Source of the DNA: an uncultured bacterium
GTDB lineage: Bacteria > Muiribacteriota > UBA9980
NCBI GenBank assembly: GCA_964421195.1
Contig: CAYQWL010000003.1
Coordinates: 74-64,073, forward strand
Direction: 5' to 3'
DNA length: 64,000 bases
Shown here: positions 3,383 to 24,424 of the stretch, one piece after another
How the letters are laid out: each line of letters opens with the position of its first letter
Position numbering within the stretch: the stretch's first letter is position 1
Notes under the pieces: generated by a model
Seen by the model: only the letters and a program-made list of their open reading frames with translations
What the model was told of the DNA's origin: nothing
Database searches by the model: none
Position numbers and translations under genes: made by a program

Positions 3383-3438
3383 TATAAGCAGATTTATAAA
3401 AAATTTATAAATCGAAATACAGGAATGCGGAGAAAAAT

Positions 3439-4359: not shown

Positions 4360-4430
4360 TAAAATTTTAATTTATTACCGGGCTTTTTTTGAGCCTTTAT
4401 TAAAGATAAAGTGGAGCGAAATGTAATTAT

Positions 4431-6410
4431 ATGTGCAGGATCAACGGTTTCTGGGATTTTCATGAAAATTTACGTTACGACGAAAAAAAAGTCAATGAAT
4501 CGATGCGCGATACCATGATTTATGGCGGCCCGGACGATTCGGGAGCGTTTTATGCCGCAAATGCGCCCGGACGCCTTGCGTTCGCACACCGGCGTCTTTC
4601 CATTATCGATCTTTCTTCGTCGGGCCGCCAGCCGATGATGGCGAACGATTATACCATCGTTTTCAACGGGGAAATTTATAATTATGCTGAAATTAAAGCG
4701 GAGCTTTTAAAAAAAGGCCATACCTTTATTTCTTCGAGCGATACGGAGGTGATTCTTAAATCTTTTATTGAATGGGGCCGAAAAGCGGTCGATAAATTCA
4801 GAGGTATGTGGGCTTTTGCTCTATGGGACGCTAAAAATAAAATTTTAACGCTTTCGCGAGACCGCGTGGGAGTTAAACCGCTGTACTGGTATTATAAAGA
4901 CGGTTTATTTATGTTTTCCTCTGAATTAAAGGCTTTTCATGCGCATCCGGCATTCGATAAAAAAATTGATGAAACATCGCTCGCTCTTTACCTTCAGTAC
5001 GGTTATATAACCGCGCCGCGCACTATATTTCAAAATACTCATAAACTCGAACCCGGAAGTTTTTTAACCATAAATTCGATCCGTGATATTTCCATATTTA
5101 AGTACTGGAGCGTCGAAGAACATTTTCTTCGGGGCGCGCAAACTGAAACGGAATTCCTGACATCCGGCGGAGAAAAAATGGACGAAGAAGCGGCGGCCGA
5201 TGAACTGGAAGCGCTTTTGCTTGAAAGTTTTAATTTAAGAATGGTTTCCGACGTACCCGTCGGAATGTTTTTAAGCGGCGGCGTAGATTCTTCTTTATTG
5301 ACGGCGCTTCTATCAAAAAATCGCTCCGGAGGCCGGACCCTTAAAACTTTTACAATCGGTTTTCGTGAAAAAGAATATGACGAGGCGGCGGACGCGAAAA
5401 AAGTGGCTTCGTTTCTCGGAACCACGCATACCGAAGCTTATTGCGGCCCGCGTGAGGCTTTTGACGTTATAGAAAAATTGCCCGGTATATACGACGAGCC
5501 GCTTGGCGATGTTTCAACGGTTCCGACTTATCTCGTTTCGAAACTCGCGCGCGGCGAAGTAAAAGTATCTCTTTCGGCCGACGGCGGCGATGAACTGTTT
5601 TTTGGATACGGCCGTTACACGATGATGCTCGAACGGATATGCCGCTTCGATTCAAATCCTTTTTTATCGCTTGCGGCAGGCGCGCTTAATTATATAAGCC
5701 CCGGCGCCGCTTATTCCATTTATAAAAATATATTATCGCCGTTTTTGCCGCGCTGGAATAATTTTTATGATAAATTCATTAAGCTGAAAAAAGTATTGAA
5801 TACCCGTGATAAAATAACCCAATATGATATTTCAAATAAGTATTTTATGGATGATTCTCTTCGCGATTTCGGCTATGACGCTTCATCCTGCGCGGCCGGG
5901 CAGCTTTTTAAATACGACCGCGCGCTCGATAAATTAAATATCGCCGCGCGTATGTCATGTTTTGATATAAAAACTTATTTACCCGACGATATTCTCGTTA
6001 AAATCGACCGTGCGGCGATGAGCGTGGCGCTTGAAGGACGCGACCCGTTTCTCGATCATAAAATTATAGAATATGCCGCTCGTCTGCCTTTTTGCCTGAA
6101 ATATAAAAACGGCGTTCAAAAATATATACTTAAAAAAATTCTTTACAGGCATGTTCCGCGCGAATTAATAGACAGGCCGAAGCAGGGATTCGGCATGCCG
6201 GTTTATGAATGGTTCCGCGGCGAATTGCAATCCTGTTATAAAGAGCGCCTCGCTTTTGATAAAATTAAACGTGAGGGAGTTTTCGACGCCGCGGCGGTGA
6301 CACGCCTGCTTGACGATTATTTAAACGGCAGGGGCGTCAATGCTCATAAACTCTGGTTTTTATTCGTGTTTGAATTATGGTATGAAAAGTATATGAATTT
6401 TAAAAATTAA
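4431..6410 (+). CDS. asnB: asparagine synthetase (glutamine-hydrolysing) family amidotransferase
   Basis: N-terminal Met-Cys nucleophile (MCRINGF). A class-II GATase domain is followed by the synthetase domain with SGGVDSS (PP-loop). Length is 659 aa. Confidence 0.85.
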   Translation: MCRINGFWDFHENLRYDEKKVNESMRDTMIYGGPDDSGAFYAANAPGRLAFAHRRLSIIDLSSSGRQPMMANDYTIVFNGEIYNYAEIKAELLKKGHTFISSSDTEVILKSFIEWGRKAVDKFRGMWAFALWDAKNKILTLSRDRVGVKPLYWYYKDGLFMFSSELKAFHAHPAFDKKIDETSLALYLQYGYITAPRTIFQNTHKLEPGSFLTINSIRDISIFKYWSVEEHFLRGAQTETEFLTSGGEKMDEEAAADELEALLLESFNLRMVSDVPVGMFLSGGVDSSLLTALLSKNRSGGRTLKTFTIGFREKEYDEAADAKKVASFLGTTHTEAYCGPREAFDVIEKLPGIYDEPLGDVSTVPTYLVSKLARGEVKVSLSADGGDELFFGYGRYTMMLERICRFDSNPFLSLAAGALNYISPGAAYSIYKNILSPFLPRWNNFYDKFIKLKKVLNTRDKITQYDISNKYFMDDSLRDFGYDASSCAAGQLFKYDRALDKLNIAARMSCFDIKTYLPDDILVKIDRAAMSVALEGRDPFLDHKIIEYAARLPFCLKYKNGVQKYILKKILYRHVPRELIDRPKQGFGMPVYEWFRGELQSCYKERLAFDKIKREGVFDAAAVTRLLDDYLNGRGVNAHKLWFLFVFELWYEKYMNFKN

Positions 6411-6512
6411 GGATAAAAAGCGCAAAATGAACGTTAAACATGAAAACCTTATAACGGCTATTACATTCGCGTTTTTGCGCGCTCATATCCGATAACCCGG
6501 AGTAAAATTATC

Positions 6513-6542
6513 TTGACTAACAGGTCGTAACTGGATTATAAT
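6513..6542 (+). promoter_or_regulatory. candidate sigma70-type promoter upstream of wzm (TTGACT - 18 nt - TATAAT)
   Basis: TTGACT at 6513-6518 and TATAAT at 6537-6542, in the 167-nt AT-rich gap between asnB and wzm. Confidence 0.4.
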
Positions 6543-6577
6543 GGAATGTTATTATTAATTAACATTATACAATAAAC

Positions 6578-7459
6578 ATGTATGTGATATATGCGATGAA
6601 AGGCGATACGGAAGTGTCCGATGCGAGTGAAAGTAAATATAGTCTTCATATCAGTCCTGGCAAGGCCGGCATAAATTATTATAAAGATTTATGGCGCTAC
6701 AGAGAGCTTTTTTTATTTCTTGCCTGGCGCGACGTTCTGGTCCGATATAAACAGACCGTTATAGGCGTTTTATGGAGCGTACTGCGTCCGCTTATAACCA
6801 TGATTATTTTTACTATCGTATTCAGCCGGCTCGCTAATTTGCCTTCTAACGGCGCGCCTTATGGAGTCATGGTTTTCGCGGGGGTTTTACCCTGGCAGTT
6901 TTTTTCGAACTCGCTTGCCGATACCGGCAACAGTCTTGTGGCTAACGCGCACCTGGTATCTAAAGTTTATTTTCCGCGCATTATAATACCGGCTTCCTCG
7001 GTTATCGTGGGTTTTATCGATTTTTTAATCGCATTTATCATCATGCTGGTTTTAATGATATTCTGGTATTCGTTTATTCCGCCCGTATCTATTTTTTTTA
7101 TATTGCCGTTTCTCGTGCCGGCTTTTTTATCTTCTCTCGGACTCGGATTTCTTGTTTCGGCCCTTACCGTTAAATATCGTGATTTTCGTTATATAGTTCC
7201 TTTTATAGTTCAATTCGGCCTTTATATTTCGCCGGTCGGTTTTATGAGTTCGATAGTGCCTGAAAAGTGGCGTTTATTATATTCTTTAAATCCGATAGTC
7301 GGCGTTATAGACGGGTTTCGCTGGGCGATACTCGGCGGCGGTTCTCAACCTTTATGGTGGCCGGGCGTAGCGGTTTCAACCGCGGTCTCGATTATATTAT
7401 TCATGATAGGTTTCGGTTATTTTCGAAATACCGAAAAGGCTTTTGCTGATGTTATTTAA
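6578..7459 (+). CDS. wzm: ABC-2 type polysaccharide exporter permease (Wzm/TagG/KpsM-like)
   Basis: About 6 TM helices and the conserved N-terminal YKDLWRYRELFLFLAWRDVLVRYKQTVIGVLWSVLRPL motif of ABC-2 permeases. The true start may be the internal Met at 6596. Confidence 0.8.
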   Translation: MYVIYAMKGDTEVSDASESKYSLHISPGKAGINYYKDLWRYRELFLFLAWRDVLVRYKQTVIGVLWSVLRPLITMIIFTIVFSRLANLPSNGAPYGVMVFAGVLPWQFFSNSLADTGNSLVANAHLVSKVYFPRIIIPASSVIVGFIDFLIAFIIMLVLMIFWYSFIPPVSIFFILPFLVPAFLSSLGLGFLVSALTVKYRDFRYIVPFIVQFGLYISPVGFMSSIVPEKWRLLYSLNPIVGVIDGFRWAILGGGSQPLWWPGVAVSTAVSIILFMIGFGYFRNTEKAFADVI

Positions 7460-7576
7460 TACAATTATTTTCGGAACATAACAAAGAAAATTATTTATTT
7501 ACATGATTATTTATTCATATAATTAATTATTGTGTTATGCAGCTAAAAAAAGATGATGATAAAGTGAGCTTTATTT

Positions 7577-8890
7577 ATGCCTGATTATGCTATTAAAATA
7601 GATAACCTCGGTAAAAAATATATAATAGGCCATCAAAATCAGGCCGGTTATAAAACATTCCGCGACGCTTTAGTCGAAAAAGTTAAAGCCGCCGCTAATT
7701 TATTGCGGCATCCGTTTTCAGACGGCGCAAATTTTTCTTCTTCTGATTATGAAGAATTCTGGGCGATTCGCGATATCTGTTTAGAAATTAAGGCAGGCGA
7801 GCGCGTAGGGATTATCGGCCGCAATGGCGCCGGTAAATCGACGCTTCTTAAAATTTTAAGTCGCATAACCGACCCTTCCGCCGGCGACATCCGGATAAAC
7901 GGTCGTGTGGCAAGCCTTCTCGAAGTCGGAACCGGGTTTCATCCGGAATTGACCGGACGCGAAAATATTTATTTAAACGGCGCCATTCTCGGCATGGGCC
8001 GCGAAGAGATAAAACGGAAATTCGATGAGATAGTCTCGTTTTCCGAAGTGGAAAAGTTTCTCGATACGCCTGTCAAGCGCTATTCATCAGGCATGTATGT
8101 ACGGCTTGCCTTTGCCGTAGCCGCTCATCTCGAACCTGAAATACTTATCGTCGATGAAGTGCTCGCCGTAGGCGACGCCGCGTTTCAAAAAAAATGCCTC
8201 GGAAAGATGGAAGATGTCGGCAAATCAGGCCGTACCGTGCTTTTTGTAAGCCATAATATGGGAGCTATAATGAGGCTTTGTGAAAAAGCGGCGCTTATGG
8301 ATAACGGCCGACTATTAAAATATGCTATGGCCGAAGATACCGTAGCCGATTATTTAAAATCAGGCGTCGGCAGCCCGGCGCTGCGTGAATGGGAAGAAAA
8401 TGAAGCGCCCGGAAATGAAATTGCGTCTCTTTTAAGCGTGGCGGTAATAGACGAATCGAATGAAATTAAAAGCTCGGCGGCTATTAATAAAAAGATAATT
8501 ATACGTATGAAATTTTTAGTTAAACTGTCAGGCTATGTGTTGACGCCGAATTTTCATTTTTATAACGGCGAAGGCGTCTGCGCTTTTGTGGTTTCTGAAG
8601 TGAAAGGCGAATGGAAACGTAAAGCGCGGCCGGCCGGATATTATATTACGGAAGTTGAAGTTCCGCCAAATTTTTTAAGTGAAGGTACATATTTAGTCGG
8701 CGCGGCCCTGAGCACCATGTCGCCTCTTAACGTTCATTTTTTTGAAAGAGATGCGGTTTCGTTTCAGGTCGCGGACAACGATTCCGGCGAAACCGCGCGC
8801 GGCGATTATTCCGGGCCGATTCCGGGAGTTTTAAGACCGATTTTAAACTGGAAAACAATATTTGAAGATAAATATAAACCGGCGGTTTAA
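7577..8890 (+). CDS. wzt: polysaccharide ABC transporter ATP-binding protein with C-terminal glycan-binding extension (Wzt-like)
   Basis: Walker A GRNGAGKST and an ABC signature. About 190 aa of C-terminal extension lie beyond the NBD, as in Wzt proteins that recognise a terminally modified glycan. Confidence 0.85.
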   Translation: MPDYAIKIDNLGKKYIIGHQNQAGYKTFRDALVEKVKAAANLLRHPFSDGANFSSSDYEEFWAIRDICLEIKAGERVGIIGRNGAGKSTLLKILSRITDPSAGDIRINGRVASLLEVGTGFHPELTGRENIYLNGAILGMGREEIKRKFDEIVSFSEVEKFLDTPVKRYSSGMYVRLAFAVAAHLEPEILIVDEVLAVGDAAFQKKCLGKMEDVGKSGRTVLFVSHNMGAIMRLCEKAALMDNGRLLKYAMAEDTVADYLKSGVGSPALREWEENEAPGNEIASLLSVAVIDESNEIKSSAAINKKIIIRMKFLVKLSGYVLTPNFHFYNGEGVCAFVVSEVKGEWKRKARPAGYYITEVEVPPNFLSEGTYLVGAALSTMSPLNVHFFERDAVSFQVADNDSGETARGDYSGPIPGVLRPILNWKTIFEDKYKPAV

Positions 8891-8913
8891 TTCGTATAAT
8901 TTCGATCGAAAGG

Positions 8914-9699
8914 ATGTCGATAATGAAAGTTGTTATTTTTTGCGGCGGCATAGGAACGCGCCTTAAAGAAGAAACTGAATTCAAGCCTAAACCGATGGTT
9001 AAAATAGGGGATAAACCTATTTTATGGCATATCATGAAGATATTTTCTTATTACGGGTTTGAAGATTTCGTGCTCTGCCTTGGCTATAAAGGCGAAATGA
9101 TACGCGAGTATTTTTATAATTATGAACTTTTTAACAGCGACGTTACTGTCGAGCTCGGAAAGAAAGATAAAATAGCCATACATAAAGGCCATGCCGAAGC
9201 CGGATGGCGCATAACCATGGTGGATACCGGCGAAAAAACTCTGAAAGGCGGACGTTTAAAACAGGTCGAAAACTATATAGATGGTGAAAATTTTTTTCTT
9301 ACCTATGGCGACGGTTTAGCTAATGTTAATATTTCTGAGTTGTTTAAATTTCATCAGGAACATGGAAAATTGGCTACGGTTACCGGCATCAGTCCCGCAT
9401 CGCGTTTCGGCGAGCTTGTCGTTGACGGCCTGAAAGTAACCGCGTTTAATGAAAAACCCGAAAAAAGTTCCGGGCTTATAAACGGCGGTTACATGGTTTT
9501 AAATAAAGGCATTTTTAATTATATAACAGCGGATGAAAATTGTGATTTCGAGATCGGGGCGATGGAAAATATAGCTCATAAAGGCGAATTGATGGTTTAT
9601 AAGCATGAAAAATCATGGGCGTGTATGGATAATATTCGCGACATGGATTATTTAAATAAATTATGGTCGGAAAGCAAAGCTTTCTGGAAGATATGGTAA
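8914..9699 (+). CDS. rfbF: glucose-1-phosphate cytidylyltransferase
   Basis: N-terminus MKVVIFCGGIGTRLKEETEFKPKPMVKIGDKPILWHIMK is nearly the canonical RfbF/DdhA signature. Length 261 aa. Confidence 0.85.
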   Translation: MSIMKVVIFCGGIGTRLKEETEFKPKPMVKIGDKPILWHIMKIFSYYGFEDFVLCLGYKGEMIREYFYNYELFNSDVTVELGKKDKIAIHKGHAEAGWRITMVDTGEKTLKGGRLKQVENYIDGENFFLTYGDGLANVNISELFKFHQEHGKLATVTGISPASRFGELVVDGLKVTAFNEKPEKSSGLINGGYMVLNKGIFNYITADENCDFEIGAMENIAHKGELMVYKHEKSWACMDNIRDMDYLNKLWSESKAFWKIW

Positions 9700-9703
9700 T
9701 AAA

Positions 9704-10795
9704 ATGAATCTTGATTTGAACATATATAAATCTAAAAAAATTTTTGTGACCGGCGATAGCGGATTTAAAGGATCATGGCTTTCAATATGGCTTTTAATGC
9801 TCGGCGCGGAGATCACGGGTTATTCGCTTGAACCGCGTACGGCCGGAGATAATTATTGCATTTGCGGCCTTAAAGATAAATATCACAGGATAAACGCGGA
9901 TGTAAGGGATTACGACAGGTTGAGCAATGAGATTAATAAATTTAAACCTGACTTTATTTTTCATCTCGCAGCGCAGCCTCTCGTACTGGATTCTTATCAA
10001 ATCCCAAGAGAAACATTCGATATTAATGTTATTGGAACGCTTAACGTTCTTGAAGCCGCCAGAAAAACGGATTCGGTGAGAACGGTCATTGTCGTTACCA
10101 GCGATAAATGTTATGATAATAAAGAAACTATATACGCCTATCGTGAAATAGACGCGCTCGGAGGAAAAGATCCTTATAGCGCATCGAAAGGGGCCGCGGA
10201 AATAATAACGGCCTCTTACGCCGCTTCATTTTTTTCGGGTCCGGATACCGCCGCCGTCGCCTCCGTTCGCGCGGGTAATGTTTTCGGCGGGGGCGATTGG
10301 GCGCCAAATAGAATATTTCCTGATTGTATAAGATCGATTTCAGAAGACCGCGAGATTCAGGTCAGAAATCCCGGAGCGGTTCGCCCATGGCAGCATGTTC
10401 TGGAACCGCTCGCGGGCTACCTTGATTTAGGTTCCGCTTTATATAATAATAAATTAAAATATACAGGCGCATGGAATTTCGGCCCTTATTACGATAATAT
10501 CAAACAGGTCGGAGTTCTCGTAAAATATATCATAGAAGCGGCGGGACGAGGCAGCGCGGCGTATTCTGCGCAATTATCTTCACGGTCTGAAGCCGGATTG
10601 CTCTATCTCGATATAGCTAAATCAATAAATTATCTTGGATGGCGGCCCGTTTTCGATTTAAAACAGGCGGTCGCGCTCGCCGTCGAAGAGTATTATGGCG
10701 CCGCGGCATGCGGGACGCCCGAAGAAACTTTTTCACAACGCGTCGAACATATTAAAAAATACATAGAAAACAGGGCAATTAAAAAAATAGAATAA
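9704..10795 (+). CDS. rfbG: CDP-glucose 4,6-dehydratase
   Basis: Extended SDR with VTGDSGFKGSW Rossmann motif and YSASK catalytic dyad. Lies immediately after rfbF. Confidence 0.8.
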   Translation: MNLDLNIYKSKKIFVTGDSGFKGSWLSIWLLMLGAEITGYSLEPRTAGDNYCICGLKDKYHRINADVRDYDRLSNEINKFKPDFIFHLAAQPLVLDSYQIPRETFDINVIGTLNVLEAARKTDSVRTVIVVTSDKCYDNKETIYAYREIDALGGKDPYSASKGAAEIITASYAASFFSGPDTAAVASVRAGNVFGGGDWAPNRIFPDCIRSISEDREIQVRNPGAVRPWQHVLEPLAGYLDLGSALYNNKLKYTGAWNFGPYYDNIKQVGVLVKYIIEAAGRGSAAYSAQLSSRSEAGLLYLDIAKSINYLGWRPVFDLKQAVALAVEEYYGAAACGTPEETFSQRVEHIKKYIENRAIKKIE

Positions 10796-10808
10796 TTGGA
10801 GTCATAAT

Positions 10809-12035
10809 ATGAAATGTAGAAATTGCGGGGCAATTATAAATCAGCCTTTTTTATCGCTCGGCGTTTCGCCGCTTTCTAACTCTTATTTAAAAGCCGGGCA
10901 GTTAAATGTTATGGAACCGTTTTATCCTTTAGAAGTTTATGTCTGCGAATCGTGTTATCTGGTACAATTAGATGAGTTTGAAAAGGCGTCAAATATTTTC
11001 AGCGATGATTATGCATATTATTCGTCTTATTCGGAAAGCTGGCTCGAACATTGCCGTAATTATGCTCTTACGGTTATAAAAAAATTCGGTCTGGACCGTG
11101 AATCATTTGTAGTAGAGGTCGCGAGCAACGACGGTTATTTGCTGCAATATTTTAAGCAGGCGGGCATAGATGTTCTGGGAATAGAGCCGGCGGCGGGAAC
11201 CGCGCAGGCCGCAATGGATAAAGGCGTTAAAACCGATGTAGCTTTTTTTAATTCAGACTATGCCGAAAAAAAATTCGTTAAAGGCAAATGCGCCGATTTA
11301 ATCATCGCTAATAATGTTCTCGCGCATAATCCCGATCTTCTTAATTTCGCGGGCGGCTTTGTAAAAGCCCTTAAGCCTCATGGCGTTTTAACTGTTGAAT
11401 TTCCGCATTTAATGAATTTAATCGCTTATAATCAGTTTGACACGATTTATCATGAGCATTTTTCATATTTCAGCCTTTATAGCGTCTCCGATCTTTTTAA
11501 ACGCTGCGGCCTCGCGGTTTTTGACGTGGAACGAATACCGACTCACGGCGGTTCTTTGAGAATTTATGCGCAAAAAGAAAGCGGCGGCATTCATACGGTA
11601 TCTGAAAATGTCGAAAAGCTTATCGACGAAGAAAAAAGTTTCGGCTTAATGGATAAAAATTTTTATAATTTATTTTCTGAAAAAGTAAAGAAAGTTAAAA
11701 GAGATTTTTTAGCTTTATTAATTGAAATAAAAAATAAAGGCGGTAAAATAGCCGGGTACGGAGCTCCGGCTAAAGGTAATACTTTGCTTAATTATTGCGG
11801 GATAAGAACGGATTTTATAGACTATACGGTAGATTTAAATCCTTATAAACAGAATAAATATCTTCCGGGCACCCGCATACCCGTGAAAGCGCCTGATTTT
11901 TTATTGAAAGACAGGCCGGATTATGTTATAATATTACCGTGGAATATTAAAGATGAAATAATTCAGCAAATAAGTTATGTCCGGGAATGGGGCGCGAAAT
12001 TTATAGTATCCGTTCCCGGCGTAGAGGTTTTTTAA
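10809..12035 (+). CDS. NDP-hexose C-methyltransferase-like class I SAM methyltransferase (N-terminal Zn ribbon)
   Basis: N-terminal CxxC...CxxC zinc-ribbon (CRNCGA...CESCYLVQ). A central SAM-binding fold and C-terminal domain are arranged as in TylCIII-type sugar C-methyltransferases. Confidence 0.65.
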   Translation: MKCRNCGAIINQPFLSLGVSPLSNSYLKAGQLNVMEPFYPLEVYVCESCYLVQLDEFEKASNIFSDDYAYYSSYSESWLEHCRNYALTVIKKFGLDRESFVVEVASNDGYLLQYFKQAGIDVLGIEPAAGTAQAAMDKGVKTDVAFFNSDYAEKKFVKGKCADLIIANNVLAHNPDLLNFAGGFVKALKPHGVLTVEFPHLMNLIAYNQFDTIYHEHFSYFSLYSVSDLFKRCGLAVFDVERIPTHGGSLRIYAQKESGGIHTVSENVEKLIDEEKSFGLMDKNFYNLFSEKVKKVKRDFLALLIEIKNKGGKIAGYGAPAKGNTLLNYCGIRTDFIDYTVDLNPYKQNKYLPGTRIPVKAPDFLLKDRPDYVIILPWNIKDEIIQQISYVREWGAKFIVSVPGVEVF

Positions 12036-12036
12036 C

Positions 12037-12570
12037 GTGAAATTTATTGAAACGGAGCTGAAAGGCGCCTATATTATCGATATTGAAAAAATAGAAGATG
12101 AAAGAGGTTTTTTTGCGAGGGCGTTTTGTAAAAATGAATTCGTAAATTACGGCCTCGAATCGGAATTTGTTCAACATAACGTGTCATTTAATAAAAAAGC
12201 CGGTACTCTCAGGGGAATGCATTTACAGCTCGCCCCGTCCGGTGAAGCAAAGGTTGTTTCATGCATTAAAGGCGCTATTTATGATGTAATAATCGATTTG
12301 CGGCGTCAGTCTCCCACTTTTATGAAATGGATTTCGATTGAATTACACGGCGATAGCGGCAGAATGCTTTATATACCGAAAGATTTCGCGCATGGTTTCC
12401 AGACGCTCGAAGATGAAACCGCGGTATATTACTGGATGTCAGAATTTTATAAACCGGACAGCGCTTTTACGATTAATTTTAACGATCCGTTGTTTTCGAT
12501 AAAATGGCCTGTTAAAAATATCACGGTATCTTCTAAAGACAGTCAGGCTGCATTTATAAAGGAATTTTAA
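12037..12570 (+). CDS. dTDP/CDP-4-keto-6-deoxyhexose 3,5-epimerase (RmlC-like cupin)
   Basis: 177 aa. The IIDIEKIEDERGFFARAF and HGFQTLEDET motifs are typical of RmlC-family cupins. Uses a GTG start. Confidence 0.75.
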   Translation: MKFIETELKGAYIIDIEKIEDERGFFARAFCKNEFVNYGLESEFVQHNVSFNKKAGTLRGMHLQLAPSGEAKVVSCIKGAIYDVIIDLRRQSPTFMKWISIELHGDSGRMLYIPKDFAHGFQTLEDETAVYYWMSEFYKPDSAFTINFNDPLFSIKWPVKNITVSSKDSQAAFIKEF

Positions 12571-12626
12571 ATGGCGGTTTTTGATTTTAACGCATATATT
12601 AGAGCGCCGCTGAGAATCGATATGGA

Positions 12627-13205
12627 GTGATTGTCATGGATCCGCGTCTTACGCGTAATACATTGATCGATGAAGAAAATAAAAATATAAGGGTGTTTTT
12701 GAAACCTTTAGATCCTTCCGACGCTTCACTTATCGTTAAGTGGCGTAACAGTCCTGAGGCAATGGCTAATTTTTTTTCAGATAATCCCGCGACGATCGAA
12801 ACGCATCGGCGCTGGTATGAAAATTATATAAAATCATTTACAAGGCATGAATACATTATTCAAATAAAGGAAAACAACGTTAAAATAGGCACGATAGGAC
12901 TCGATTCCATTGATTTAATCAATATGAGCGCCGAATACGGCAGTGTTATGATCGGCGAGGAAGAATACAAAGGCAGGTCTTACGCTTATGATGCGTCAGT
13001 AGTTCTTTTAAAACATGCGTTTGGTCCGATGGGGCTTAACCGTGTTTTCTTAAGAGTTTTTATCGATAACGCGCCGGCCGCTAAACTGTATAATAAATTA
13101 GGGTTCCGGCATGAAGGAGTTCTCAGAAAAAGTATTAAAAAATTCGGTGAATATCGTGATGTAGCGGTTATGTCGTTAATTAACGGCGAATTTAATATTA
13201 TATAA
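12627..13205 (+). CDS. GNAT family N-acetyltransferase
   Basis: 192 aa. Has an acetyl-CoA-binding segment (RVFLRVFIDNAPAAKLYNKLGF) and overall GNAT topology. Confidence 0.65.
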   Translation: MIVMDPRLTRNTLIDEENKNIRVFLKPLDPSDASLIVKWRNSPEAMANFFSDNPATIETHRRWYENYIKSFTRHEYIIQIKENNVKIGTIGLDSIDLINMSAEYGSVMIGEEEYKGRSYAYDASVVLLKHAFGPMGLNRVFLRVFIDNAPAAKLYNKLGFRHEGVLRKSIKKFGEYRDVAVMSLINGEFNII

Positions 13206-13297
13206 ATACCATACGTTTTTATTTTTTTGTCAGCTGTATGGTATCTTAATATTTTTGTACAATATAATTAAACATCGAATTATTGGAGGAATAATTT

Positions 13298-14029
13298 TTG
13301 AATATTGAATTTGAAAATATGAAAAAAAATATGATAGAGAGCGTTGGCACCGATCCGCACGCGAAAGAGCTTGGAGTAGAATTTATCGATTATACGGCTA
13401 AATATAAATATTCCTACAATTTTACATGGCTCGGCCGGCCTATTATACAATTTCCGCAGGACATCGTCGCCATGCAGGAAATTATATGGAATATCAAACC
13501 CGATTTAATAATAGAAACCGGAATAGCGCATGGCGGTTCATTGATTTTTTATGCTTCCATTCTTGAGTTAATCGGTGAGGACGGCCTGGTTCTTGGTATC
13601 GATATCGATATTCGCGAACATAATCGTATCGAGATTGAAAAACATAAGTTATTTAAAAGAATTAAAATGATACAGGGCTCGTCGATCGATGAACGGGTGG
13701 TAGAGCAAGCGGCTTCCATAGCAAAAGATAAATCCCGCATTCTCGTAGTTTTAGATTCGAACCATACTCATGATCATGTTTTAAAAGAACTTTCACTTTA
13801 CTCCGGTTTCGTTACCAGGGGAAGTTATTTAGTCGTTTTTGACACGGTAGTCGAAGATATGGCCGAGAGTAATTTTGCTGATCGTCCGTGGGGTAAAGGA
13901 AATAATCCAAAAACAGCGGTTCGTGAATTTTTAAAAACAAACGATAGTTTTGAAATAGATTCAATGATCGAAAATAAACTTTTAATAACTGTAGCGCCGC
14001 AGGGCTATTTGAGGCGAATTAAGGAGTGA
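13298..14029 (+). CDS. CmcI/cephalosporin-hydroxylase-family SAM-dependent (sugar O-)methyltransferase
   Basis: The QFPQDIVAMQEIIWNIKPDLIIETGIAHGGSLIFYA motif is characteristic of the CmcI / rhamnosyl O-methyltransferase family. TTG start with a GGAGGA RBS 7 nt upstream. Confidence 0.7.
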   Translation: MNIEFENMKKNMIESVGTDPHAKELGVEFIDYTAKYKYSYNFTWLGRPIIQFPQDIVAMQEIIWNIKPDLIIETGIAHGGSLIFYASILELIGEDGLVLGIDIDIREHNRIEIEKHKLFKRIKMIQGSSIDERVVEQAASIAKDKSRILVVLDSNHTHDHVLKELSLYSGFVTRGSYLVVFDTVVEDMAESNFADRPWGKGNNPKTAVREFLKTNDSFEIDSMIENKLLITVAPQGYLRRIKE

Positions 14030-14033
14030 GATA

Positions 14034-15161
14034 ATGGAAAGAATACCTGTTGCGGGTCCCTGGATTACTCAAAAAGAAATAGATTATGTAAACGATGCCG
14101 TGAGCGGCGGTTGGTACGCTAATGCCAGTAATTATATAAATAAGTTTGAAGCGGCTTTCGCTTCTTATACAGGCGTAAAATATGCCGTGGCGATGCCGTC
14201 ATGTACCGCGGCGATACATATAGCCCTTTTAACATTAAACATAAATGCCGGCGATGAGGTTATAGTTCCCGATATAACGTGGATAGCCACTGCCGCGCCT
14301 ATTAATTATGTCGGCGCCGTTCCGGTATTCGTCGATATCGATAAAAAGACATGGTGTATATCGCCCGAAGCGTTCGAAGCCGCTATTACACCGAAAACTA
14401 AGGCCGTTATTATCGTCGATCTGTACGGCAATGTTTGCGATATGGATAAAATAAAAGAAATAGCGCGTAAAAACGGAATAAAAATAATCGAAGATGCCGC
14501 CCAGGCCGTTGGGGCGGAGTATAAAGGCCGCCGGGCGGGATCGTTCGGCGATGCCGGAGTTTTTAGTTTTCACGGCACTAAAACGCTTACTACCGGCGAA
14601 GGCGGCATGTTTCTTACTGATAGCGATGAAATTTATCAAAGATGTATTTTTTTAAGGGACCACGGGCGGAATACACAGTCGGGAAAAATGTTCTGGAATG
14701 ATGAAGTGGCTTATAAATATAAAATGTCGAACATGCAGGCGGCGCTCGGATTGGCGCAGTTAGAGCGGATCGATGAGTTGATTAAAAGAAAAATCGAAAT
14801 TTTTGAAATGTATGCCGAATTATTATCATCATATAATATGATTACTTTAAATTATCAGGCGGCCGGCACGCGAAGCGCTTACTGGATGGTAACGGCCGTT
14901 CTAAATAAGAAGATCGGCCTGACTAAAGAAGATATAATCAAAAACATGTCTTCTCAAAATATAGATTGCCGGCCGTTTTTTTATCCTTTAAGCAGTATGC
15001 CGGCTTATGAAGGCGTGCCGGGAATCGAAAAAGCGCGGGCAAATAATACCGTCAGTTACGAATTATCGCCGTATGCGGTGAATTTGCCTGGCGCATTAAC
15101 TCTAACTAAGGAAAAAATAGCCTGTGTCTGCGATTCTTTAATTAAAATGTGTAATTTTTAA
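14034..15161 (+). CDS. DegT/DnrJ/EryC1/StrS family PLP-dependent sugar aminotransferase
   Basis: SFHGTKTLTTGEGGM contains the PLP-binding Lys, so this is an aminotransferase rather than an E1 dehydrase. Fold-I AAT features throughout. Confidence 0.85.
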   Translation: MERIPVAGPWITQKEIDYVNDAVSGGWYANASNYINKFEAAFASYTGVKYAVAMPSCTAAIHIALLTLNINAGDEVIVPDITWIATAAPINYVGAVPVFVDIDKKTWCISPEAFEAAITPKTKAVIIVDLYGNVCDMDKIKEIARKNGIKIIEDAAQAVGAEYKGRRAGSFGDAGVFSFHGTKTLTTGEGGMFLTDSDEIYQRCIFLRDHGRNTQSGKMFWNDEVAYKYKMSNMQAALGLAQLERIDELIKRKIEIFEMYAELLSSYNMITLNYQAAGTRSAYWMVTAVLNKKIGLTKEDIIKNMSSQNIDCRPFFYPLSSMPAYEGVPGIEKARANNTVSYELSPYAVNLPGALTLTKEKIACVCDSLIKMCNF

Positions 15162-15256
15162 TGTCAGGATTTCTTAAAAATAAAATTAATGTTTTAATAA
15201 ATTTAACGTTAAAAAATTAAAATAAAATATATTAAATTTGTTATAATAAATGAATT

Positions 15257-16192
15257 ATGATGAATAATCCACTTATAAGCGTTGGAATACCTACTTATAA
15301 TAGACCGTCTGGATTACGCCGCGTTCTTGAAAATATTTGCGCTCAAACGTATGAAAATTTAGAAATAATAATTTCAGATAATTGTTCTGATAACAAAGAC
15401 GTTAAGAAAATAGTACGGGAGTTTATTAAAAACGACAAAAGAATCCGGTATTATTGTCATGAGTGTAATATGGGACCGGTTTATAATTTTAATTTTGCGC
15501 TGCGTAAAGCGCGCGGCGATTATTTTATGTGGGCCGCCGATGATGATGAGTGGCCGCAAAAGAATTATATTTTAAAATGTTTTGAGTTTTTGCGCGATAA
15601 TTCTGATTATTCTTTAGTATGCGGCGAGGTGAAATATTATAATAATAAAATTTATTTCGGCGAGGGTGTAAAAATAAATTTAACCTCGGCAAATCGTTTT
15701 GAAAGAGTTGCTGATTACTATTCACAGGTTATGGATAATTCAACCTTTTACGGCCTTTATGATCTAAAAAAGATTGAAAATTTTTATTTAAAAAATAACC
15801 TCGGCGGCGATTGGTTTTTTATAGCGGCCGCGGCCTTTAAGGGAAAAATTGGATTCTTACCCGATATTTATTTTATAAGAAATTGCGGCGGAGCGACAGT
15901 TAGTTTTGAAAAAATCACGGCTACATTAAACCTTGATTCTATTAATTCAAAATATCCCAATCTAATGATAGCTTTTAATGCGCTTTGCGACATTATGTTC
16001 AGCGCTGAAATATATAAAGCAATTAGTATTTTTGAAAGAATGTATTTTTCATCTATTATTTTCTGGAAAATTTTTTATGCAAGAGCTTTTATGCCATGGT
16101 TCTTAAAACGTCCTTCTTTTATTATAAATACTGCTGTAACAGCAAAAAAAATTATTAAAAATATAGTTTGCTTTAAAATTTTTAAACATTGA
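15257..16192 (+). CDS. glycosyltransferase family 2
   Basis: ISVGIPTYNRPSGLRRVLENICAQTYENLEIIISDNCSD is a GT2 signature. Confidence 0.75.
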   Translation: MMNNPLISVGIPTYNRPSGLRRVLENICAQTYENLEIIISDNCSDNKDVKKIVREFIKNDKRIRYYCHECNMGPVYNFNFALRKARGDYFMWAADDDEWPQKNYILKCFEFLRDNSDYSLVCGEVKYYNNKIYFGEGVKINLTSANRFERVADYYSQVMDNSTFYGLYDLKKIENFYLKNNLGGDWFFIAAAAFKGKIGFLPDIYFIRNCGGATVSFEKITATLNLDSINSKYPNLMIAFNALCDIMFSAEIYKAISIFERMYFSSIIFWKIFYARAFMPWFLKRPSFIINTAVTAKKIIKNIVCFKIFKH

Positions 16193-16263
16193 ATGATAAA
16201 AATAACGGATGCTTCATTTATAACGAACTATTAAAAACTTGATGCACTAATTAAAAGGCTGAT

Positions 16264-17439
16264 ATGAAAATATTATACGATCATCAAATATTCGCTTCGC
16301 AGGTTTATGGCGGCATATCAAGGTATTTTTACGAACTGGCGCATTCGTTATGTTCGCAGTATCAGGACGTGCGCTGTTTGCTGTCTTTGATTTATTCTAA
16401 CAATCATTACTTAAAAGGCGGTAAAACTGTTTTTACTCATAGCGGCGATTATAAACGGATTATCGATTACGATAATTTTTGCGCGGGGTTTAATTTTAAA
16501 GGCAAGTGGAAGTTATTTCAAATAGCGAAAAAAATAAGTTATATTAAAGATTATAGCGCCGCTAATAAAGCGTGCGGCGTTAAAGCCGTTGAAGCAGGCG
16601 ATTATGATATATTTCATCCGACTTATTACGATAATTATTTTTTAAAACATATAGGGCATAAACCTTATGTGCTTACGGTTTACGATATGATACACGAATT
16701 ATTTCCTCATGAATTTCTTCGTGATGAATCTATATGTTATCAAAAGAAAATTTTAATCGAAAATGCCTCGAAAGTAATAGCTATATCTGAAAATACAAAA
16801 AAAGACATAGTAAAATTTTATGGCTGCGAAGAAAAAATAGAGGTCGTACATCTTGGAAATTCACTTATGCCGCCTGAGGCAAATTACGCGGGCGGTAAGG
16901 CCCCGCCGGAAAAATATATTTTATTCGTAGGAAGCCGCCAGAAATATAAAAATTTCGATTTTTTTATTAAATCGGCCGCTCCCATTTTAAAAGATCATAA
17001 TGACCTGAAATTGGTGTGCGCGGGCGGCGGATTATTTAGCATTGATGAAATAAATTTGTTAAAATCACTTGGTGTCGCCGAAAAAGTAACGCAGATGTCT
17101 TTAAGCGACGACGGGCTCGCTTTATTTTATAAAAACGCGCTGGCTTTTATTTTTCCGTCTCTATACGAGGGTTTTGGAATACCGGTTCTTGAATCTTTCG
17201 CGTCAGGCTGTCCTCTTATCGTCAGTAATTCGAGTTCTTTGCCAGAAGTGGCGGGAGACGCCGCTATATATATCGATCCACAGTCCGCCGTTTCGATTCA
17301 AACAGCCGTAGAAAAAGCCGTTACGGATAAAAAACTTCGAGACGAATTACAAGCGAAAGGATTTGAGCAGTTAAAAAAGTTTTCATGGAATATTACCGCT
17401 CAAAAAACGAAAAAAATTTATGAACGAATACTTAATTAA
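16264..17439 (+). CDS. glycosyltransferase family 4
   Basis: EGFGIPVLESFASGCPLIVSNSSSLPEVAG is the GT4 C-terminal motif. Confidence 0.8.
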   Translation: MKILYDHQIFASQVYGGISRYFYELAHSLCSQYQDVRCLLSLIYSNNHYLKGGKTVFTHSGDYKRIIDYDNFCAGFNFKGKWKLFQIAKKISYIKDYSAANKACGVKAVEAGDYDIFHPTYYDNYFLKHIGHKPYVLTVYDMIHELFPHEFLRDESICYQKKILIENASKVIAISENTKKDIVKFYGCEEKIEVVHLGNSLMPPEANYAGGKAPPEKYILFVGSRQKYKNFDFFIKSAAPILKDHNDLKLVCAGGGLFSIDEINLLKSLGVAEKVTQMSLSDDGLALFYKNALAFIFPSLYEGFGIPVLESFASGCPLIVSNSSSLPEVAGDAAIYIDPQSAVSIQTAVEKAVTDKKLRDELQAKGFEQLKKFSWNITAQKTKKIYERILN

Positions 17440-17456
17440 ATTATAAGGCGGCGTTT

Positions 17457-18413
17457 ATGGTTAAAATAATGATTACGGGTTATAACGGGTTTGTCGGCCG
17501 GCACCTTGTGCGTGAATTATATAAAGCCAGGCGCGGCTCAATTGAAGTAATCGGCATCGATAAAACTATAGATTCAGCGGATAATTTGCCGGCCTCCGTC
17601 GAAGAATGTAATTTTCTCGATTTTGCCAATGTGTTTGAAATAATAAAAAAATACTCGCCGGAAGTGATTTTTCATTTCGCCGCTGAAAGTTCCGTCGCGT
17701 CAAGCTGGCATTCACCTTCGTTTATGGTTTCAAATAACGTTAATTCGCAGATTAATCTTTTCGAGGCGCTGCGCAAGCTCGATAAATTAAAAACGCGCGT
17801 GATAATCGCCGGTTCCTCAGAGGAATACGGCGAGGTCGATCCCGAAATGCTGCCGGCAAGCGAAAACTGCGCGTTCCGGCCGCTCAGTTCTTATGCGGTA
17901 AGTAAAATAGCCCAGGATATGACGGCGTTTCAATATTTTAAAAGCTATGGCATGGATGTAATCAGGGTAAGATGCTTTAATCTTTGCGGACCGGGACAGC
18001 TTTCTAAGTACGTTCTCAGTTCGTTCGCGCGTCAGACTGCTCAAATCGAAGCGTCCGGAGCGCGTTCAGGCGTCATAAAAGTCGGAAATCTCGAAATCGC
18101 AAGAGATTATACCGACGTTCGCGACGCTTCTAATTACTATATCGAGTTAGCTGAAAAAGCAGTTTCCGGCGAGGTATATAATCTTTGCTCCGGCAAAATT
18201 TATTATTTAAAAGACTTATTGAATATTTTAATTAAAAAATCTAAAATTGATATTCGAGTTGAAACCGATCCCGAAAAATTAAGGCCCTCCGATTTAAAAT
18301 TAATTTATGGCGATAATTCTAAGTTAAACGCATTATGTAATTACAGGCCGCGTTATAATATCGAAACTACTTTAACTGAAATGCTCGATTATTGGCGAGA
18401 AAATATATCATAA
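17457..18413 (+). CDS. NAD-dependent epimerase/dehydratase (extended SDR; GDP-6-deoxyhexose reductase-like)
   Basis: ITGYNGFVGRHL Rossmann motif and a YAVSK catalytic motif. 318 aa. Confidence 0.7.
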   Translation: MVKIMITGYNGFVGRHLVRELYKARRGSIEVIGIDKTIDSADNLPASVEECNFLDFANVFEIIKKYSPEVIFHFAAESSVASSWHSPSFMVSNNVNSQINLFEALRKLDKLKTRVIIAGSSEEYGEVDPEMLPASENCAFRPLSSYAVSKIAQDMTAFQYFKSYGMDVIRVRCFNLCGPGQLSKYVLSSFARQTAQIEASGARSGVIKVGNLEIARDYTDVRDASNYYIELAEKAVSGEVYNLCSGKIYYLKDLLNILIKKSKIDIRVETDPEKLRPSDLKLIYGDNSKLNALCNYRPRYNIETTLTEMLDYWRENIS

Positions 18414-18533
18414 GAAGGTATAGCGTTTAAAGCGGCTTTTTAAAAACCGCACAAATCGATTTTTGGTTTGATACAGTATGAACAAAATCAATGTCAGGCA
18501 AATTGAATAATGAATGGGAATTAATTATTTTTT

Positions 18534-19397: not shown

Positions 19398-19489
19398 CTT
19401 TTTAGCGTTAAAAATAAGTATTAAAAGCTTAAATTTGATTTATAGATTAAATTATGTAAATAAACGAATAAGTAAAGGAAGAAAAAAAT

Positions 19490-20452: not shown

Positions 20453-20556
20453 TGACCTGTTGATTGCAATCGCGAATAGCGCGGTATAAATTTTTATAAA
20501 AGATATTTCAGGATTCGAGGCCGCAATAATTGCCAACATAATGTTATGATATAAAT

Positions 20557-24353: not shown

Positions 24354-24424
24354 AGTTACTTGTTTTTTTAAAAATTTATGTGAATGAAAAATGAAATTTG
24401 TTATATTAAAAATAGAGGTTTATA

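Follow-up and report, generated by a model that had tools for sequence, protein, structure and literature searches.

Which sugar do seven consecutive tailoring genes make from CDP-glucose, and is it one sugar or more? The question arose from a 64,000-nt stretch of DNA of an uncultured Muiribacteriota bacterium (contig CAYQWL010000003.1), here called the window. The initial annotation had predicted an amino sugar derived from CDP-4-keto-6-deoxyglucose, branched or C-methylated, N-acetylated and possibly methylated as well, and comparison with related cassettes supports this prediction. We consider it fairly likely, judging from the sequences, that a single pathway leads to a CDP-activated, C-methylated, aminated, N-acetylated and O-methylated sugar.

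The cassette and its glycan cluster

According to the ORF list and the gene calls, positions 8914-15161 are the exact extent of seven consecutive plus-strand ORFs (Table 1). Their profile and sequence matches span E 1e-18 to 1e-129, which excludes chance, and with the catalytic motifs they bear out all seven initial gene assignments. Since the intergenic gaps are only 1-95 nt and terminator-like sites are not in excess (22 observed vs 24.9 in shuffled sequence), the genes most likely form one operon and encode one nucleotide-sugar pathway.

The cassette lies inside a 23-kb glycan cluster. In order, it encodes GT4, GT2 and an AsnB-like amidotransferase, followed by wzm, wzt and the sugar cassette, with wzt ending 23 nt before it. 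After the cassette come GT2, GT4, SDR, GT2, SDR, an unknown ORF, two methyltransferases (MT), a GT9-like protein and a further MT. Wzm homologues adjoin C-methyltransferase (C-MT) cassettes at other loci. The C-terminus of Wzt scored 29.1 bits against PF14524 (Wzt_C), slightly below the cutoff of 30.4, and shares 30-40% identity (E 1e-20 to 1e-36) with that of Wzt from related cassettes at eight loci. In most related cassettes a GT2 gene comes after CmcI or DegT, and the GT2 directly 3' of our cassette is probably the dedicated transferase of the rare sugar.

Table 1. Features of the cassette and its surroundings (window coordinates)
Feature	Position	Strand	Match
Glycan cluster enclosing the cassette, ABC-transporter-dependent, co-directional	2270..25378	+	
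Wzm-type ABC-2 permease, glycan export context	6578..7459	+	PF01061, E 1e-17
Wzt-type ABC ATPase, C-terminal carbohydrate-binding-like domain	7577..8890	+	PF00005
Glucose-1-phosphate cytidylyltransferase (G1PCT), step 1	8914..9699	+	TIGR02623 equivalog, 339.7 bits > cutoff 300.25
CDP-glucose 4,6-dehydratase (DH), step 2	9704..10795	+	TIGR02622 equivalog, 430.6 bits > cutoff 278.45
SAM-dependent NDP-hexose C-MT (CMT), TylC3/TcaB9/KijD1 type, predicted step 3	10809..12035	+	PF08421 Zn-binding, PF13489 class-I MT, PF08484
RmlC-type 3,5- or 5-epimerase (EPI), predicted step 4 (to L-series)	12037..12570	+	TIGR01221, 173.9 bits > cutoff 155.75
GNAT N-acyltransferase, PseH-like, predicted step 6 (N-acetylation of 4-amino)	12636..13205	+	PF13302, E 7e-21
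CmcI/rhamnosyl-O-methyltransferase-family MT, predicted step 7	13298..14029	+	PF04989, 310 bits
PLP-dependent DegT-family sugar aminotransferase, perosamine-synthase-like, predicted step 5 (C-4 transamination)	14034..15161	+	PF01041, 403 bits
GT2 glycosyltransferase directly 3' of cassette	15257..16192	+	PF00535, E 7e-30
SDR gene downstream of cassette	17457..18413		
SDR gene downstream of cassette	19490..20452		

The predicted pathway

Steps 1 and 2 are established at the equivalog level. The cytidylyltransferase would make CDP-D-glucose, and the 4,6-dehydratase, with a YSASK motif at residue 158 and a GDSGFKG motif, would convert it into CDP-4-keto-6-deoxy-D-glucose. The C-MT carries the Zn ribbon (Cys3/6/46/49) and YHEH at residues 214-217. 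Its best PDB match is the D-mycarose 3-C-methyltransferase 4rv9 (1e-80), followed by 5t64 (1e-74) and TcaB9 3ndi (1e-70), all over the full length. Such a TylC3/TcaB9-type enzyme would use SAM to place a methyl branch beside the 4-keto group, with C-3 as the most likely site; counting against this proposal, the substrates of the characterised homologues TylC3, TcaB9 and KijD1 are all dTDP-2-deoxy sugars. The RmlC-type enzyme, which has the motifs RGMH and FAHGF and matches the RmlC structure 7pvi (4e-42), would then invert C-5, alone or together with C-3, and so yield an L-sugar.

The DegT protein (375 aa) keeps the PLP lysine, Lys183, within FHGTKT at residues 179-184, as the initial annotation had stressed when it called the protein an aminotransferase and not an E1 3-dehydrase. 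A grouping of DegT with E1, named there as one refuting outcome, was checked by scores: the top PDB match is GDP-perosamine synthase 3bn1 (1e-86), E1 3bb8 is far weaker (1e-41), and with the RfbH model (cutoff 423) the score was only 195 bits. The PseC model gave 291 bits, below the 423 cutoff, and the nearest characterised relatives (Per, LegC, PseC, ArnB and WecE) are all C-4 aminotransferases. Domain and profile searches of the cluster found neither an E3 reductase nor a thiamine-dependent YerE-like enzyme; a comparison with YerE/YerF, proposed earlier, is not relevant. With the PLP lysine kept, the RfbH cutoff missed and E3 absent, a role of DegT as E1 is effectively refuted. The classical CDP-3,6-dideoxyhexose pathway to abequose, tyvelose, paratose or ascarylose (DdhA-D, E1/E3) has the same first two enzymes, but the window lacks E1, an Fe-S dehydrase with His in place of Lys, as well as E3, and its branch departs after the 4-keto intermediate. 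We regard this pathway as highly improbable here. The perosamine-synthase-like DegT would convert the 4-keto group into a 4-amine, in place of the 4-ketoreductase of neutral sister cassettes.

The amine would then be acylated by the PseH-like GNAT, with acetyl as the predicted group. Among the curated models PseH (TIGR03585) fits this protein best, although its 79.3 bits lie below the cutoff of 93.1. The closest homologue (47%) occupies the PseH position of a pseudaminic-acid-like cluster, and homologues at 38% are located directly after a DegT gene. The ORF opens at GTG 12627, but its true start is most likely ATG 12636, which is preceded by GGAG and agrees with the NCBI call P0123 of 189 aa.

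The CmcI-family gene has a TTG start with GGAGG upstream. Amino cassettes contain orthologues with 66-71% identity, and those in ketoreductase (neutral) cassettes reach 55-65%. Since the gene is common to both, the target should be one that both sugars share, a hydroxyl rather than an amine, and O-methylation is the probable reaction. The family member Rv2959c has 2-O specificity, and O-2 is our best guess for the position; the methyl group could be added before glycosyl transfer, on the nucleotide sugar, or after it. The adjacent GT2 would transfer the sugar into the glycan, which Wzm/Wzt would export. The predicted product is CDP-4-acetamido-4,6-dideoxy-3-C-methyl-(2-O-methyl)-L-hexose, for which we infer both regio- and stereochemistry.

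Cassette types and alternative readings

We compared 80 C-MT loci from species-representative genomes. A G1P cytidylyltransferase (at least 44% identity) is present in 53 of them, the epimerase in 64, the dehydratase in 46 and CmcI in 31. Two types of cassette recur: a neutral one, G1PCT-DH-EPI-CMT-SDR(284 aa)-CmcI-GT2, and an amino one that ends in CMT-EPI-[slot]-CmcI-DegT-GT2. The five close DegT homologues that we looked up all stand at the 3' end of a cassette, with a CmcI gene before and a GT2 gene after. C-MT and RmlC genes are present in 4/4 of the contigs that reach far enough upstream, and these four cassettes lack a ketoreductase of the reference type; the fifth contig begins within the RmlC-like gene, so its C-MT region is off the contig. 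DegT and the putative 4-ketoreductase of the neutral cassettes did not co-occur at any of the 80 loci (hypergeometric P = 0.013-0.024). This mutual exclusion argues that DegT consumes the 4-keto group. The GNAT position is held in sister cassettes by an LbH acyltransferase, a formyltransferase, a GNAT, an ATP-grasp enzyme or a class-I MT. Such a variety of amine-modifying enzyme types suggests that the slot enzyme modifies the amine, and by sequence comparison the variation is a non-orthologous replacement of this step. The seven-gene order of the window recurs unchanged in Microcoleus vaginatus PCC 9802, where an LbH acyltransferase stands in place of GNAT.

The two downstream SDRs might in principle serve as 4-ketosugar reductases, which counts against a single product. 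The cluster might then make two sugars, a neutral vinelose-type one (G1PCT, dehydratase, C-MT, epimerase, CmcI and a downstream SDR) and a separate 4-acetamido-4,6-dideoxy sugar, bacillosamine- or QuiNAc4NAc-like, from DegT and GNAT, and DegT + GNAT pairs without a C-MT do exist elsewhere. However, the cassette ketoreductase orthologues share 44-86% identity with the reference ketoreductase (L014) but only about 21-25% with the window SDRs. For the other cassette proteins, identity between the window and the neutral-type loci is 46-65%. The exclusion of ketoreductase by DegT, the position of DegT next to CmcI in the ketoreductase-free cassettes and the 4-nt CmcI-DegT gap in the window also speak against two sugars, and we find this reading quite unlikely. 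Equally doubtful is the same composition with another regiochemistry, that is, a C-5 methyl (NovU-like) or a C-3 amine introduced before methylation (3-amino-3-C-methyl, vancosamine- or kijanose-like). Two of the three solved structures closest to the C-MT belong to TcaB9 and KijD1, which methylate 3-amino-4-keto sugars, and the family also contains C-5 methyltransferases such as NovU. Against this, the domain and profile searches found neither a 2,3-dehydratase nor a 3,4-ketoisomerase in the cluster, the cupin protein is confidently assigned to RmlC, and the characterised relatives of DegT act at C-4. Moreover, a 3-amino route leaves a 4-keto group that needs a ketoreductase, and this enzyme is missing exactly where DegT occurs.

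In another alternative, CmcI would methylate the nitrogen or, for example, the polymer terminus instead of a sugar hydroxyl, or the GNAT would transfer an acyl group other than acetyl. CmcI is tightly coupled to DegT (adjacent in 5/5 contexts), and with 106 bits it stays far under the cutoff of 400 of the curated rhamnosyl O-MT model NF045824. In addition, Rv2959c acts on a glycolipid-bound and not on a nucleotide sugar (PMC3594219). On the other hand, 10 cassettes with the ketoreductase but without an aminotransferase contain the 55-65% identical orthologues, which rules out an amine as the general substrate of CmcI. A separate class-I MT fills the slot where N-methylation seems intended (L054 and L006). 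Taken together, we consider these alternatives unlikely, and a single 4-acylamino, C-methylated and O-methylated sugar remains our preferred reading.

Chemical precedents and related systems

The predicted sugar has chemical precedents in N-acylkansosamine and CDP-vinelose. N-acylkansosamine of the Mycobacterium kansasii lipooligosaccharides (LOS) is 4-acylamino-4,6-dideoxy-3-C-methyl-2-O-methyl-L-mannose, and its composition matches that of our predicted product, with a C-methyl branch, a 4-amine, an N-acyl and an O-methyl group on a 6-deoxy sugar. CDP-vinelose of Azotobacter vinelandii is CDP-6-deoxy-3-C-methyl-2-O-methyl-L-talose and shares the CDP activation, C-methyl branch, L-series and O-methylation. 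By analogy, the window product may be described as an N-acylkansosamine-like sugar, the 4-amino counterpart of CDP-vinelose. The six activities of the neutral cassette G1PCT-DH-EPI-CMT-SDR-CmcI are exactly those required for vinelose. Five of these genes have orthologues in the window, which differs by an aminotransferase instead of the 4-ketoreductase and by an added N-acyltransferase. Our literature search found no publication that connects the cassette with vinelose. Among the species-specific genes of the LOS cluster that makes N-acylkansosamine are those for a G1P cytidylyltransferase, an NAD epimerase/dehydratase, a rhamnose epimerase and a methyltransferase (PMC4403928), a gene set that points to a CDP route to kansosamine; this comparison with the window is one of described gene content. 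The acyl group of kansosamine is of the 2-methoxypropionyl type and its carrier a glycolipid, whereas for the window acetyl and a Wzm/Wzt-exported polymer are predicted.

In gene order, the window matches Synechocystis PCC 6803 (slr0977-slr0985/slr1610), where wzm-wzt-rfbF-rfbG-rfbC-slr1610 encodes the transporter, G1PCT, 4,6-dehydratase, an RmlC-like protein and a putative C-3 methyltransferase; these genes are needed for the major EPS band, which is lost in the mutants (PMC3769361). DegT, GNAT and CmcI are not reported there, the authors read slr1610 as a chain-terminating methyltransferase, and they note rfbFGC genes in A. vinelandii (PMC3769361).

Actinomycete antibiotic pathways to dTDP-L-mycarose (TylC3/TylK/TylC2), dTDP-L-epivancosamine (EvaA-E) and tetronitrose/kijanose (TcaB9, KijD1) use C-MTs with the same fold, Zn ribbon and YHEH (1e-70 to 1e-80, full length). 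There, as proposed for the window, a 4-keto sugar is the substrate of the C-MT, and the next enzyme is an RmlC-type epimerase. They are dTDP-linked, 2-deoxy and part of secondary metabolism, whereas the window pathway would be CDP-linked, keep the 2-OH and serve a cell-surface glycan; the amine of the Eva, TcaB9 and KijD1 routes is at C-3, not at the predicted C-4. Amination and acetylation at C-4 of a 6-deoxyhexose are carried out by Per and PseC/PseH, with Per and PseH the best matches of DegT and GNAT, although on GDP and UDP carriers and other sugar substrates.

The initial annotation had called this sugar class rare for a CDP-linked pathway. This holds for characterised chemistry; for genomes it is overstated, because the cassette family is common there, with a CDP-type cytidylyltransferase at two thirds of the C-MT loci. 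We found no biochemical characterisation of the family in the literature. The locus is an ordinary but useful variant of the pathway.

Enzymes of the cassette

The seven consecutive ORFs of the cassette were found on the plus strand exactly where the initial annotation had placed them, separated by intergenic gaps of 1-95 nt. Profile searches bore out all seven enzyme assignments with unambiguous identities. The proposed gene set stood, with one correction: the GNAT gene probably starts at the ATG at 12636, which is preceded by GGAG and agrees with the 189-aa database call. Terminator-like sites were not enriched compared with shuffled sequence, and tRNA and Rfam scans across the window gave no matches. 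The first two enzymes, glucose-1-phosphate cytidylyltransferase (TIGR02623, 339.7 bits, cutoff 300.25) and CDP-glucose 4,6-dehydratase (TIGR02622, 430.6 bits, cutoff 278.45), scored above their cutoffs. Coordinates of the features are collected in the table, together with the proteins that occupy the GNAT position (here called the slot) in comparison loci, which carry L numbers.

Features of the window and occupants of the slot in comparison loci
Feature	Locus	Coordinates	Strand	Remarks
Glycan cluster	window	2270-25378		23 kb, co-directional, encloses the cassette
AsnB-type glutamine amidotransferase	window	4431-6410	+	XrtA/PEP-CTERM amidotransferase 521 bits, below cutoff 817; TIGR01536 456 bits
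Wzt, C-terminal domain (residues 266-437)	window	7577-8890
Seven-gene cassette	window	8914-15161	+
ORF without Pfam or NCBIfam match	window	20557-21510	+	317 aa, inside glycan cluster
Three class-I methyltransferases (PF13489) and GT9-like	window	21634-25378	+	3' end of glycan cluster
Chemotaxis operon	window	33594-45701	+	CheA-CheW fusion, two large MCPs with HAMP_2 arrays and Cache domains, CheR, CheB
FabF	window	50143-51381	-
Pel-like exopolysaccharide operon	window	55103-63117	+	GH114 PelA-like, PelF 425 bits, PelG 361 bits
Slot: GNAT	window, L058			26% identical to each other
Slot: LbH acyltransferase	L015, L076, L081, L083, L086
Slot: formyltransferase	L067
Slot: class-I methyltransferase	L054, L006
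Slot: ATP-grasp ligase and 409-425 aa SDR-like protein	L075	12373-15513		extra class-I methyltransferase (PF13489)
Slot: ATP-grasp ligase and 409-425 aa SDR-like protein	L084	4238-7277		extra TylF-type methyltransferase
Slot: ATP-grasp ligase and 409-425 aa SDR-like protein	L085	4194-7229		extra TylF-type methyltransferase
Slot: second, shortened C-methyltransferase-like protein	L005	12010-13095
Slot: second, shortened C-methyltransferase-like protein	L027	11763-12848

The C-methyltransferase has a three-part architecture, with a PF08421 Zn ribbon (75.7 bits), a PF13489 class-I SAM domain (49.2 bits) and a C-terminal PF08484 domain (217.3 bits). It aligned over its full length with the D-mycarose 3-C-methyltransferase 4rv9 (1e-80), with 5t64 (1e-74) and with TcaB9 3ndi (1e-70). 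The motifs behind its assignment were found (Cys3, Cys6, Cys46 and Cys49, and YHEH at residues 214-217) and line up with their counterparts in 4rv9. As in TcaB9, the four cysteines would bind zinc and YHEH would be the active-site motif. Judging by the nearest homologues and by the precedents of vinelose and kansosamine, the enzyme would methylate C-3 of an NDP-4-keto sugar. The epimerase (TIGR01221, 173.9 bits, cutoff 155.75; PDB match 7pvi, 4e-42) carries the catalytic motifs RGMH (His62) and FAHGF and a conserved Tyr131/132. It is a standard RmlC and would act on C-5 or on both C-3 and C-5.

The DegT protein (PF01041, 402.9 bits) contains the FHGTKT motif at residues 179-184, and the claimed PLP lysine, Lys183, aligns with the lysine of Per (FFGNK). 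E1 dehydrases are PMP enzymes of about 437 aa in which this lysine is replaced by histidine. The best PDB match was GDP-perosamine synthase 3bn1 (1e-86), followed by ArnB and other C-4 aminotransferases, whereas the E1 dehydrase 3bb8 reached 1e-41 only and the RfbH/E1 model gave 195 bits (cutoff 423). DegT therefore sides with Per and not with the E1 dehydrases, the grouping named by the initial annotation as the one that would contradict an aminotransferase. All of its nearest characterised relatives are C-4 enzymes. With Lys183 retained and the RfbH score far below the cutoff, we rejected the classical CDP-3,6-dideoxyhexose route. The cassette has the cytidylyltransferase and the dehydratase in common with that pathway, but E1 and E3 are missing from the cluster (no E3-type domain was found in 2270-25378), so it is not a member.

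The GNAT matches PF13302. PseH was the top curated match (TIGR03585), but its 79.3 bits fall short of the equivalog cutoff of 93.1, and the top PDB matches are AAC(6') and SpeG-type GNATs. The protein is rare, with only 21 homologues at E <= 1e-10. The nearest of them (47%) occupies the PseH position in a pseB-pseC-pseF-pseI-like cluster, and two others (38%) lie directly after a DegT gene in an RmlA/RmlB-containing cluster. These positions suggest that the GNAT works like a nucleotide-4-amino-6-deoxyhexose N-acetyltransferase, and it probably functions as PseH does although it is not filed as PseH. The CmcI-family methyltransferase (PF04989, 310.4 bits, cutoff 23.2) aligned weakly with the CmcI structure 2bm8 (8e-9), with the SAM-binding loop aligned. 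It is not an equivalog of the mycobacterial rhamnosyl O-methyltransferase (NF045824, 106.4 bits, cutoff 400).

Recurrence of the cassette and its two types

When one genome per species was scanned for the C-methyltransferase, 175 relatives were confirmed. Of these, the 80 best loci, 50-62% identical and spread over very many phyla, were analysed from -4.5 to +8.5 kb of the C-methyltransferase start. Among these best 80 of 175 loci, an epimerase was present in 64, a cytidylyltransferase of at least 44% identity in 53, a dehydratase of at least 40% identity in 46 and a CmcI homologue in 31. DegT was found in 16/80 at any identity and in 9/80 at 47% identity or higher. This means that CDP-linked C-methyl-sugar cassettes are common in genomes. 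The description of this sugar class as rare therefore holds for characterised chemistry but not for genomes, since 53 of the 80 loci have the cytidylyltransferase. In our literature search, CDP-linked C-methyltransferase cassettes appeared in no biochemical study and only in annotation-level mentions for Sinorhizobium (SMb21416-18) and Synechocystis; the search also found no paper on vinelose.

The commoner, neutral type has the order cytidylyltransferase, dehydratase, epimerase, C-methyltransferase, SDR (~284 aa), CmcI, GT2, and is without an aminotransferase (examples are L014, L023, L033, L034, L051, L062, L064, L071 and L080). Its carriers include Bacteroidota, Lentisphaerota, Tepidanaerobacter and a Methanosarcina MAG (L051), and it lies at about 7.6-12.9 kb within the 21-kb loci. 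The SDR, which we read as a 4-ketoreductase, belongs to the extended short-chain dehydrogenases and matches no curated equivalog. In the second, amino type, DegT stands in its place. The two genes did not occur together at any of the 80 loci, whether ketoreductase orthologues at 15 loci were compared with DegT at 16 (overlap 0, P = 0.024, hypergeometric) or, at other thresholds, 29 loci with 9 (overlap 0, P = 0.013). This mutual exclusion argues more strongly than any of the other evidence that the 4-keto group is what DegT consumes. Together with the C-4 relatives it indirectly points to the 4-keto group as the site where DegT would act.

Five close DegT homologues (62-65% identity) were examined, from Microcoleus vaginatus PCC 9802 (L081/L082), an ENA scaffold (L083), a JGI sediment contig (L084), a Bacillota MAG (L085) and a Thermoplasmata-labelled MAG (L086). 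The CmcI gene precedes and a GT2 follows DegT in all five. The C-methyltransferase and an RmlC-like gene lie upstream in all four contigs that reach far enough; the L086 contig begins inside the RmlC-like gene, which cuts off the C-methyltransferase region. L084 and L085 have wzt, cytidylyltransferase and dehydratase genes upstream, like the window. In M. vaginatus the order of the seven genes equals that of the window, with an LbH (hexapeptide) acyltransferase replacing the GNAT.

The slot is thus filled by non-orthologous proteins, all of them amine-modifying enzymes, which is good evidence that it derivatises the DegT product. From the ATP-grasp, SDR and methyltransferase combination of L075, L084 and L085, the substituent of the 4-amino group there would seem to be more elaborate and linked as an amide. 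The shortened protein of the cyanobacterial loci L005 and L027 has 361 aa, is 20-23% identical to the C-methyltransferase and gives weak Zn-ribbon and PF08484 matches. It might carry out N-methylation or a second C-methylation.

Predicted sugar and alternative readings

The pathway proposed in the initial annotation, a CDP-4-keto-6-deoxyglucose-derived sugar that is C-methylated, aminated, N-acetylated and possibly methylated, is supported by comparative genomics and by the nearest relatives of the enzymes. Glucose-1-phosphate and CTP give CDP-glucose and then CDP-4-keto-6-deoxy-D-glucose, as the equivalog scores show. The further steps would be C-3 methylation by the TylC3-type enzyme, epimerisation at C-5 or at C-3 and C-5, transamination at C-4, N-acetylation and O-methylation; the adjacent GT2 would transfer the sugar and Wzm/Wzt would serve export. 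The predicted product class is a 3-C-methyl, 2-O-methyl L-6-deoxyhexose with a 4-NHAcyl group, of the N-acylkansosamine/vinelose type.

The position of the O-methyl group follows from the distribution of CmcI. In amino cassettes, the CmcI orthologues share 66-71% identity with the window protein; in ketoreductase cassettes without an aminotransferase they share 55-65%. Since CmcI is present in both types, its target should be common to both, a hydroxyl and not an amine. This speaks against the enzyme being an N-methyltransferase or acting on a non-sugar substrate, which we disfavour because it is also found in cassettes that make no amine. In a 4-acylamino sugar only O-2 and the tertiary O-3 would be free, which makes O-2 the best guess. 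This guess agrees with vinelose and kansosamine, which both carry a 2-O-methyl group, and with Rv2959c, whose specificity is for the 2-O position of rhamnosyl residues. Rv2959c is the PGL sugar methyltransferase (PMC3594219). Since its substrate is a lipid-linked sugar, O-methylation after glycosyl transfer is possible.

The cassette could also be read as serving two sugars made independently of each other, one of which would have a downstream SDR as its ketoreductase. The SDRs of the window share no more than about 21-25% identity with the ketoreductase orthologues, which match the L014 reference at 44-86%, and were rejected as the ketoreductase of the cassette. The tight coupling of CmcI and DegT and the mutual exclusion of ketoreductase and DegT likewise disfavour two sugars. 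Another regiochemistry, with a C-5 methyl or a 3-amino-3-C-methyl arrangement, is disfavoured as well because there is no 2,3-dehydratase or ketoisomerase and the affinities of DegT are to C-4 enzymes. A yersiniose-type YerE/YerF branch was rejected since no thiamine-dependent enzyme is present in the cluster, and the comparison with YerE/YerF suggested in the initial annotation is inapplicable for the same reason.

Surface glycan locus and relation to known branched sugars

The order of genes in the glycan cluster is GT4, GT2, AsnB-like, wzm, wzt, the cassette, GT2, GT4, SDR, GT2, SDR and an ORF without a family match, followed at the 3' end by two class-I methyltransferases, a GT9-like gene and another methyltransferase. 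Both Wzm (PF01061) and Wzt (PF00005) are present, and the galactan/teichoic acid export ATPase models gave 188-193 bits. This gene content indicates an ABC-transporter-dependent surface polysaccharide locus. A possible role of the AsnB-type protein is the amidation of a uronic acid or some other carboxyl group in the polymer, and the methyltransferases and the GT9-like protein of the 3' end may modify the polymer or terminate the chain.

The wzt gene lies immediately upstream of the cytidylyltransferase gene in the window, L051, L067, L078, L080, L084, L085 and Synechocystis. With PF14524, the Wzt C-terminal domain scored 29.1 bits, slightly below the cutoff of 30.4. It showed 30-40% identity (E 1e-20 to 1e-36) to that of Wzt proteins in eight cassette-bearing loci from distant phyla; it was not conserved in L006 or L050. 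The C-methyl sugar is a possible ligand of this domain. Behind the cassette there is a single GT2. One reading, which we consider rather unlikely, is that the sugar is not part of the repeat unit but caps the non-reducing end, where the GT2 would attach it a single time and the C-terminal domain of Wzt would read it for export and chain length. It would explain the wzt position, the lone GT2 and the Wzt similarity, all of which are correlations only. If so, the variable slot would diversify a terminal epitope.

Elsewhere in the window, FabF, FabD, PlsX and PelF/PelG indicate a bacterial origin. FabF shares 80-97% identity with a small, tight group in which a Candidatus Wallbacteria MAG is the one named member, and Clostridia come next at about 65%; judged by this single marker, the source is probably an uncultured lineage resembling Wallbacteria. 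Over the chemotaxis operon the AT skew is strongly positive (0.15-0.30), and the Pel-like operon also holds two ORFs with weak or no matches.

Among known sugars, CDP-vinelose is the neutral counterpart of the predicted one. Vinelose is 6-deoxy-3-C-methyl-2-O-methyl-L-talose, and the neutral cassette, with exactly the six activities for its CDP form, could represent the gene set that has long been missing for this sugar. The closest product class is the N-acylkansosamine of M. kansasii. The LOS cluster of this species contains species-specific genes for a G1P cytidylyltransferase, an epimerase/dehydratase, a rhamnose epimerase and a methyltransferase (PMC4403928). The genetically studied relative is the wzm-wzt-rfbF-rfbG-rfbC-slr1610 cluster of Synechocystis. 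Mutants in this cluster lack the major EPS band, and the same study pointed out rfbFGC genes in Azotobacter vinelandii (PMC3769361). Mechanistic models are the pathways to dTDP-mycarose, epivancosamine and tetronitrose, which differ from the cassette in the nucleotide, 2-deoxygenation and amine position. The cassette is a new, uncharacterised version of the well-known tailoring of NDP-4-keto-6-deoxyhexoses.

The C-methyl sugar pathways of actinomycete antibiotics use dTDP. If our prediction is true, such pathways extend beyond these antibiotics, with CDP-linked ones occurring widely among environmental bacteria, cyanobacteria and some archaeal MAGs. Through its modular slot (GNAT, LbH, formyltransferase, ATP-grasp, methyltransferase), the cassette would then provide a natural toolkit for branched sugars with varied 4-N substituents. 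Taken by itself, this genome shows a routine surface-glycan operon. The cassette family matters more than the single genome because it could assign genes to kansosamine- and vinelose-type sugars, branched sugars that have been chemically known for decades.
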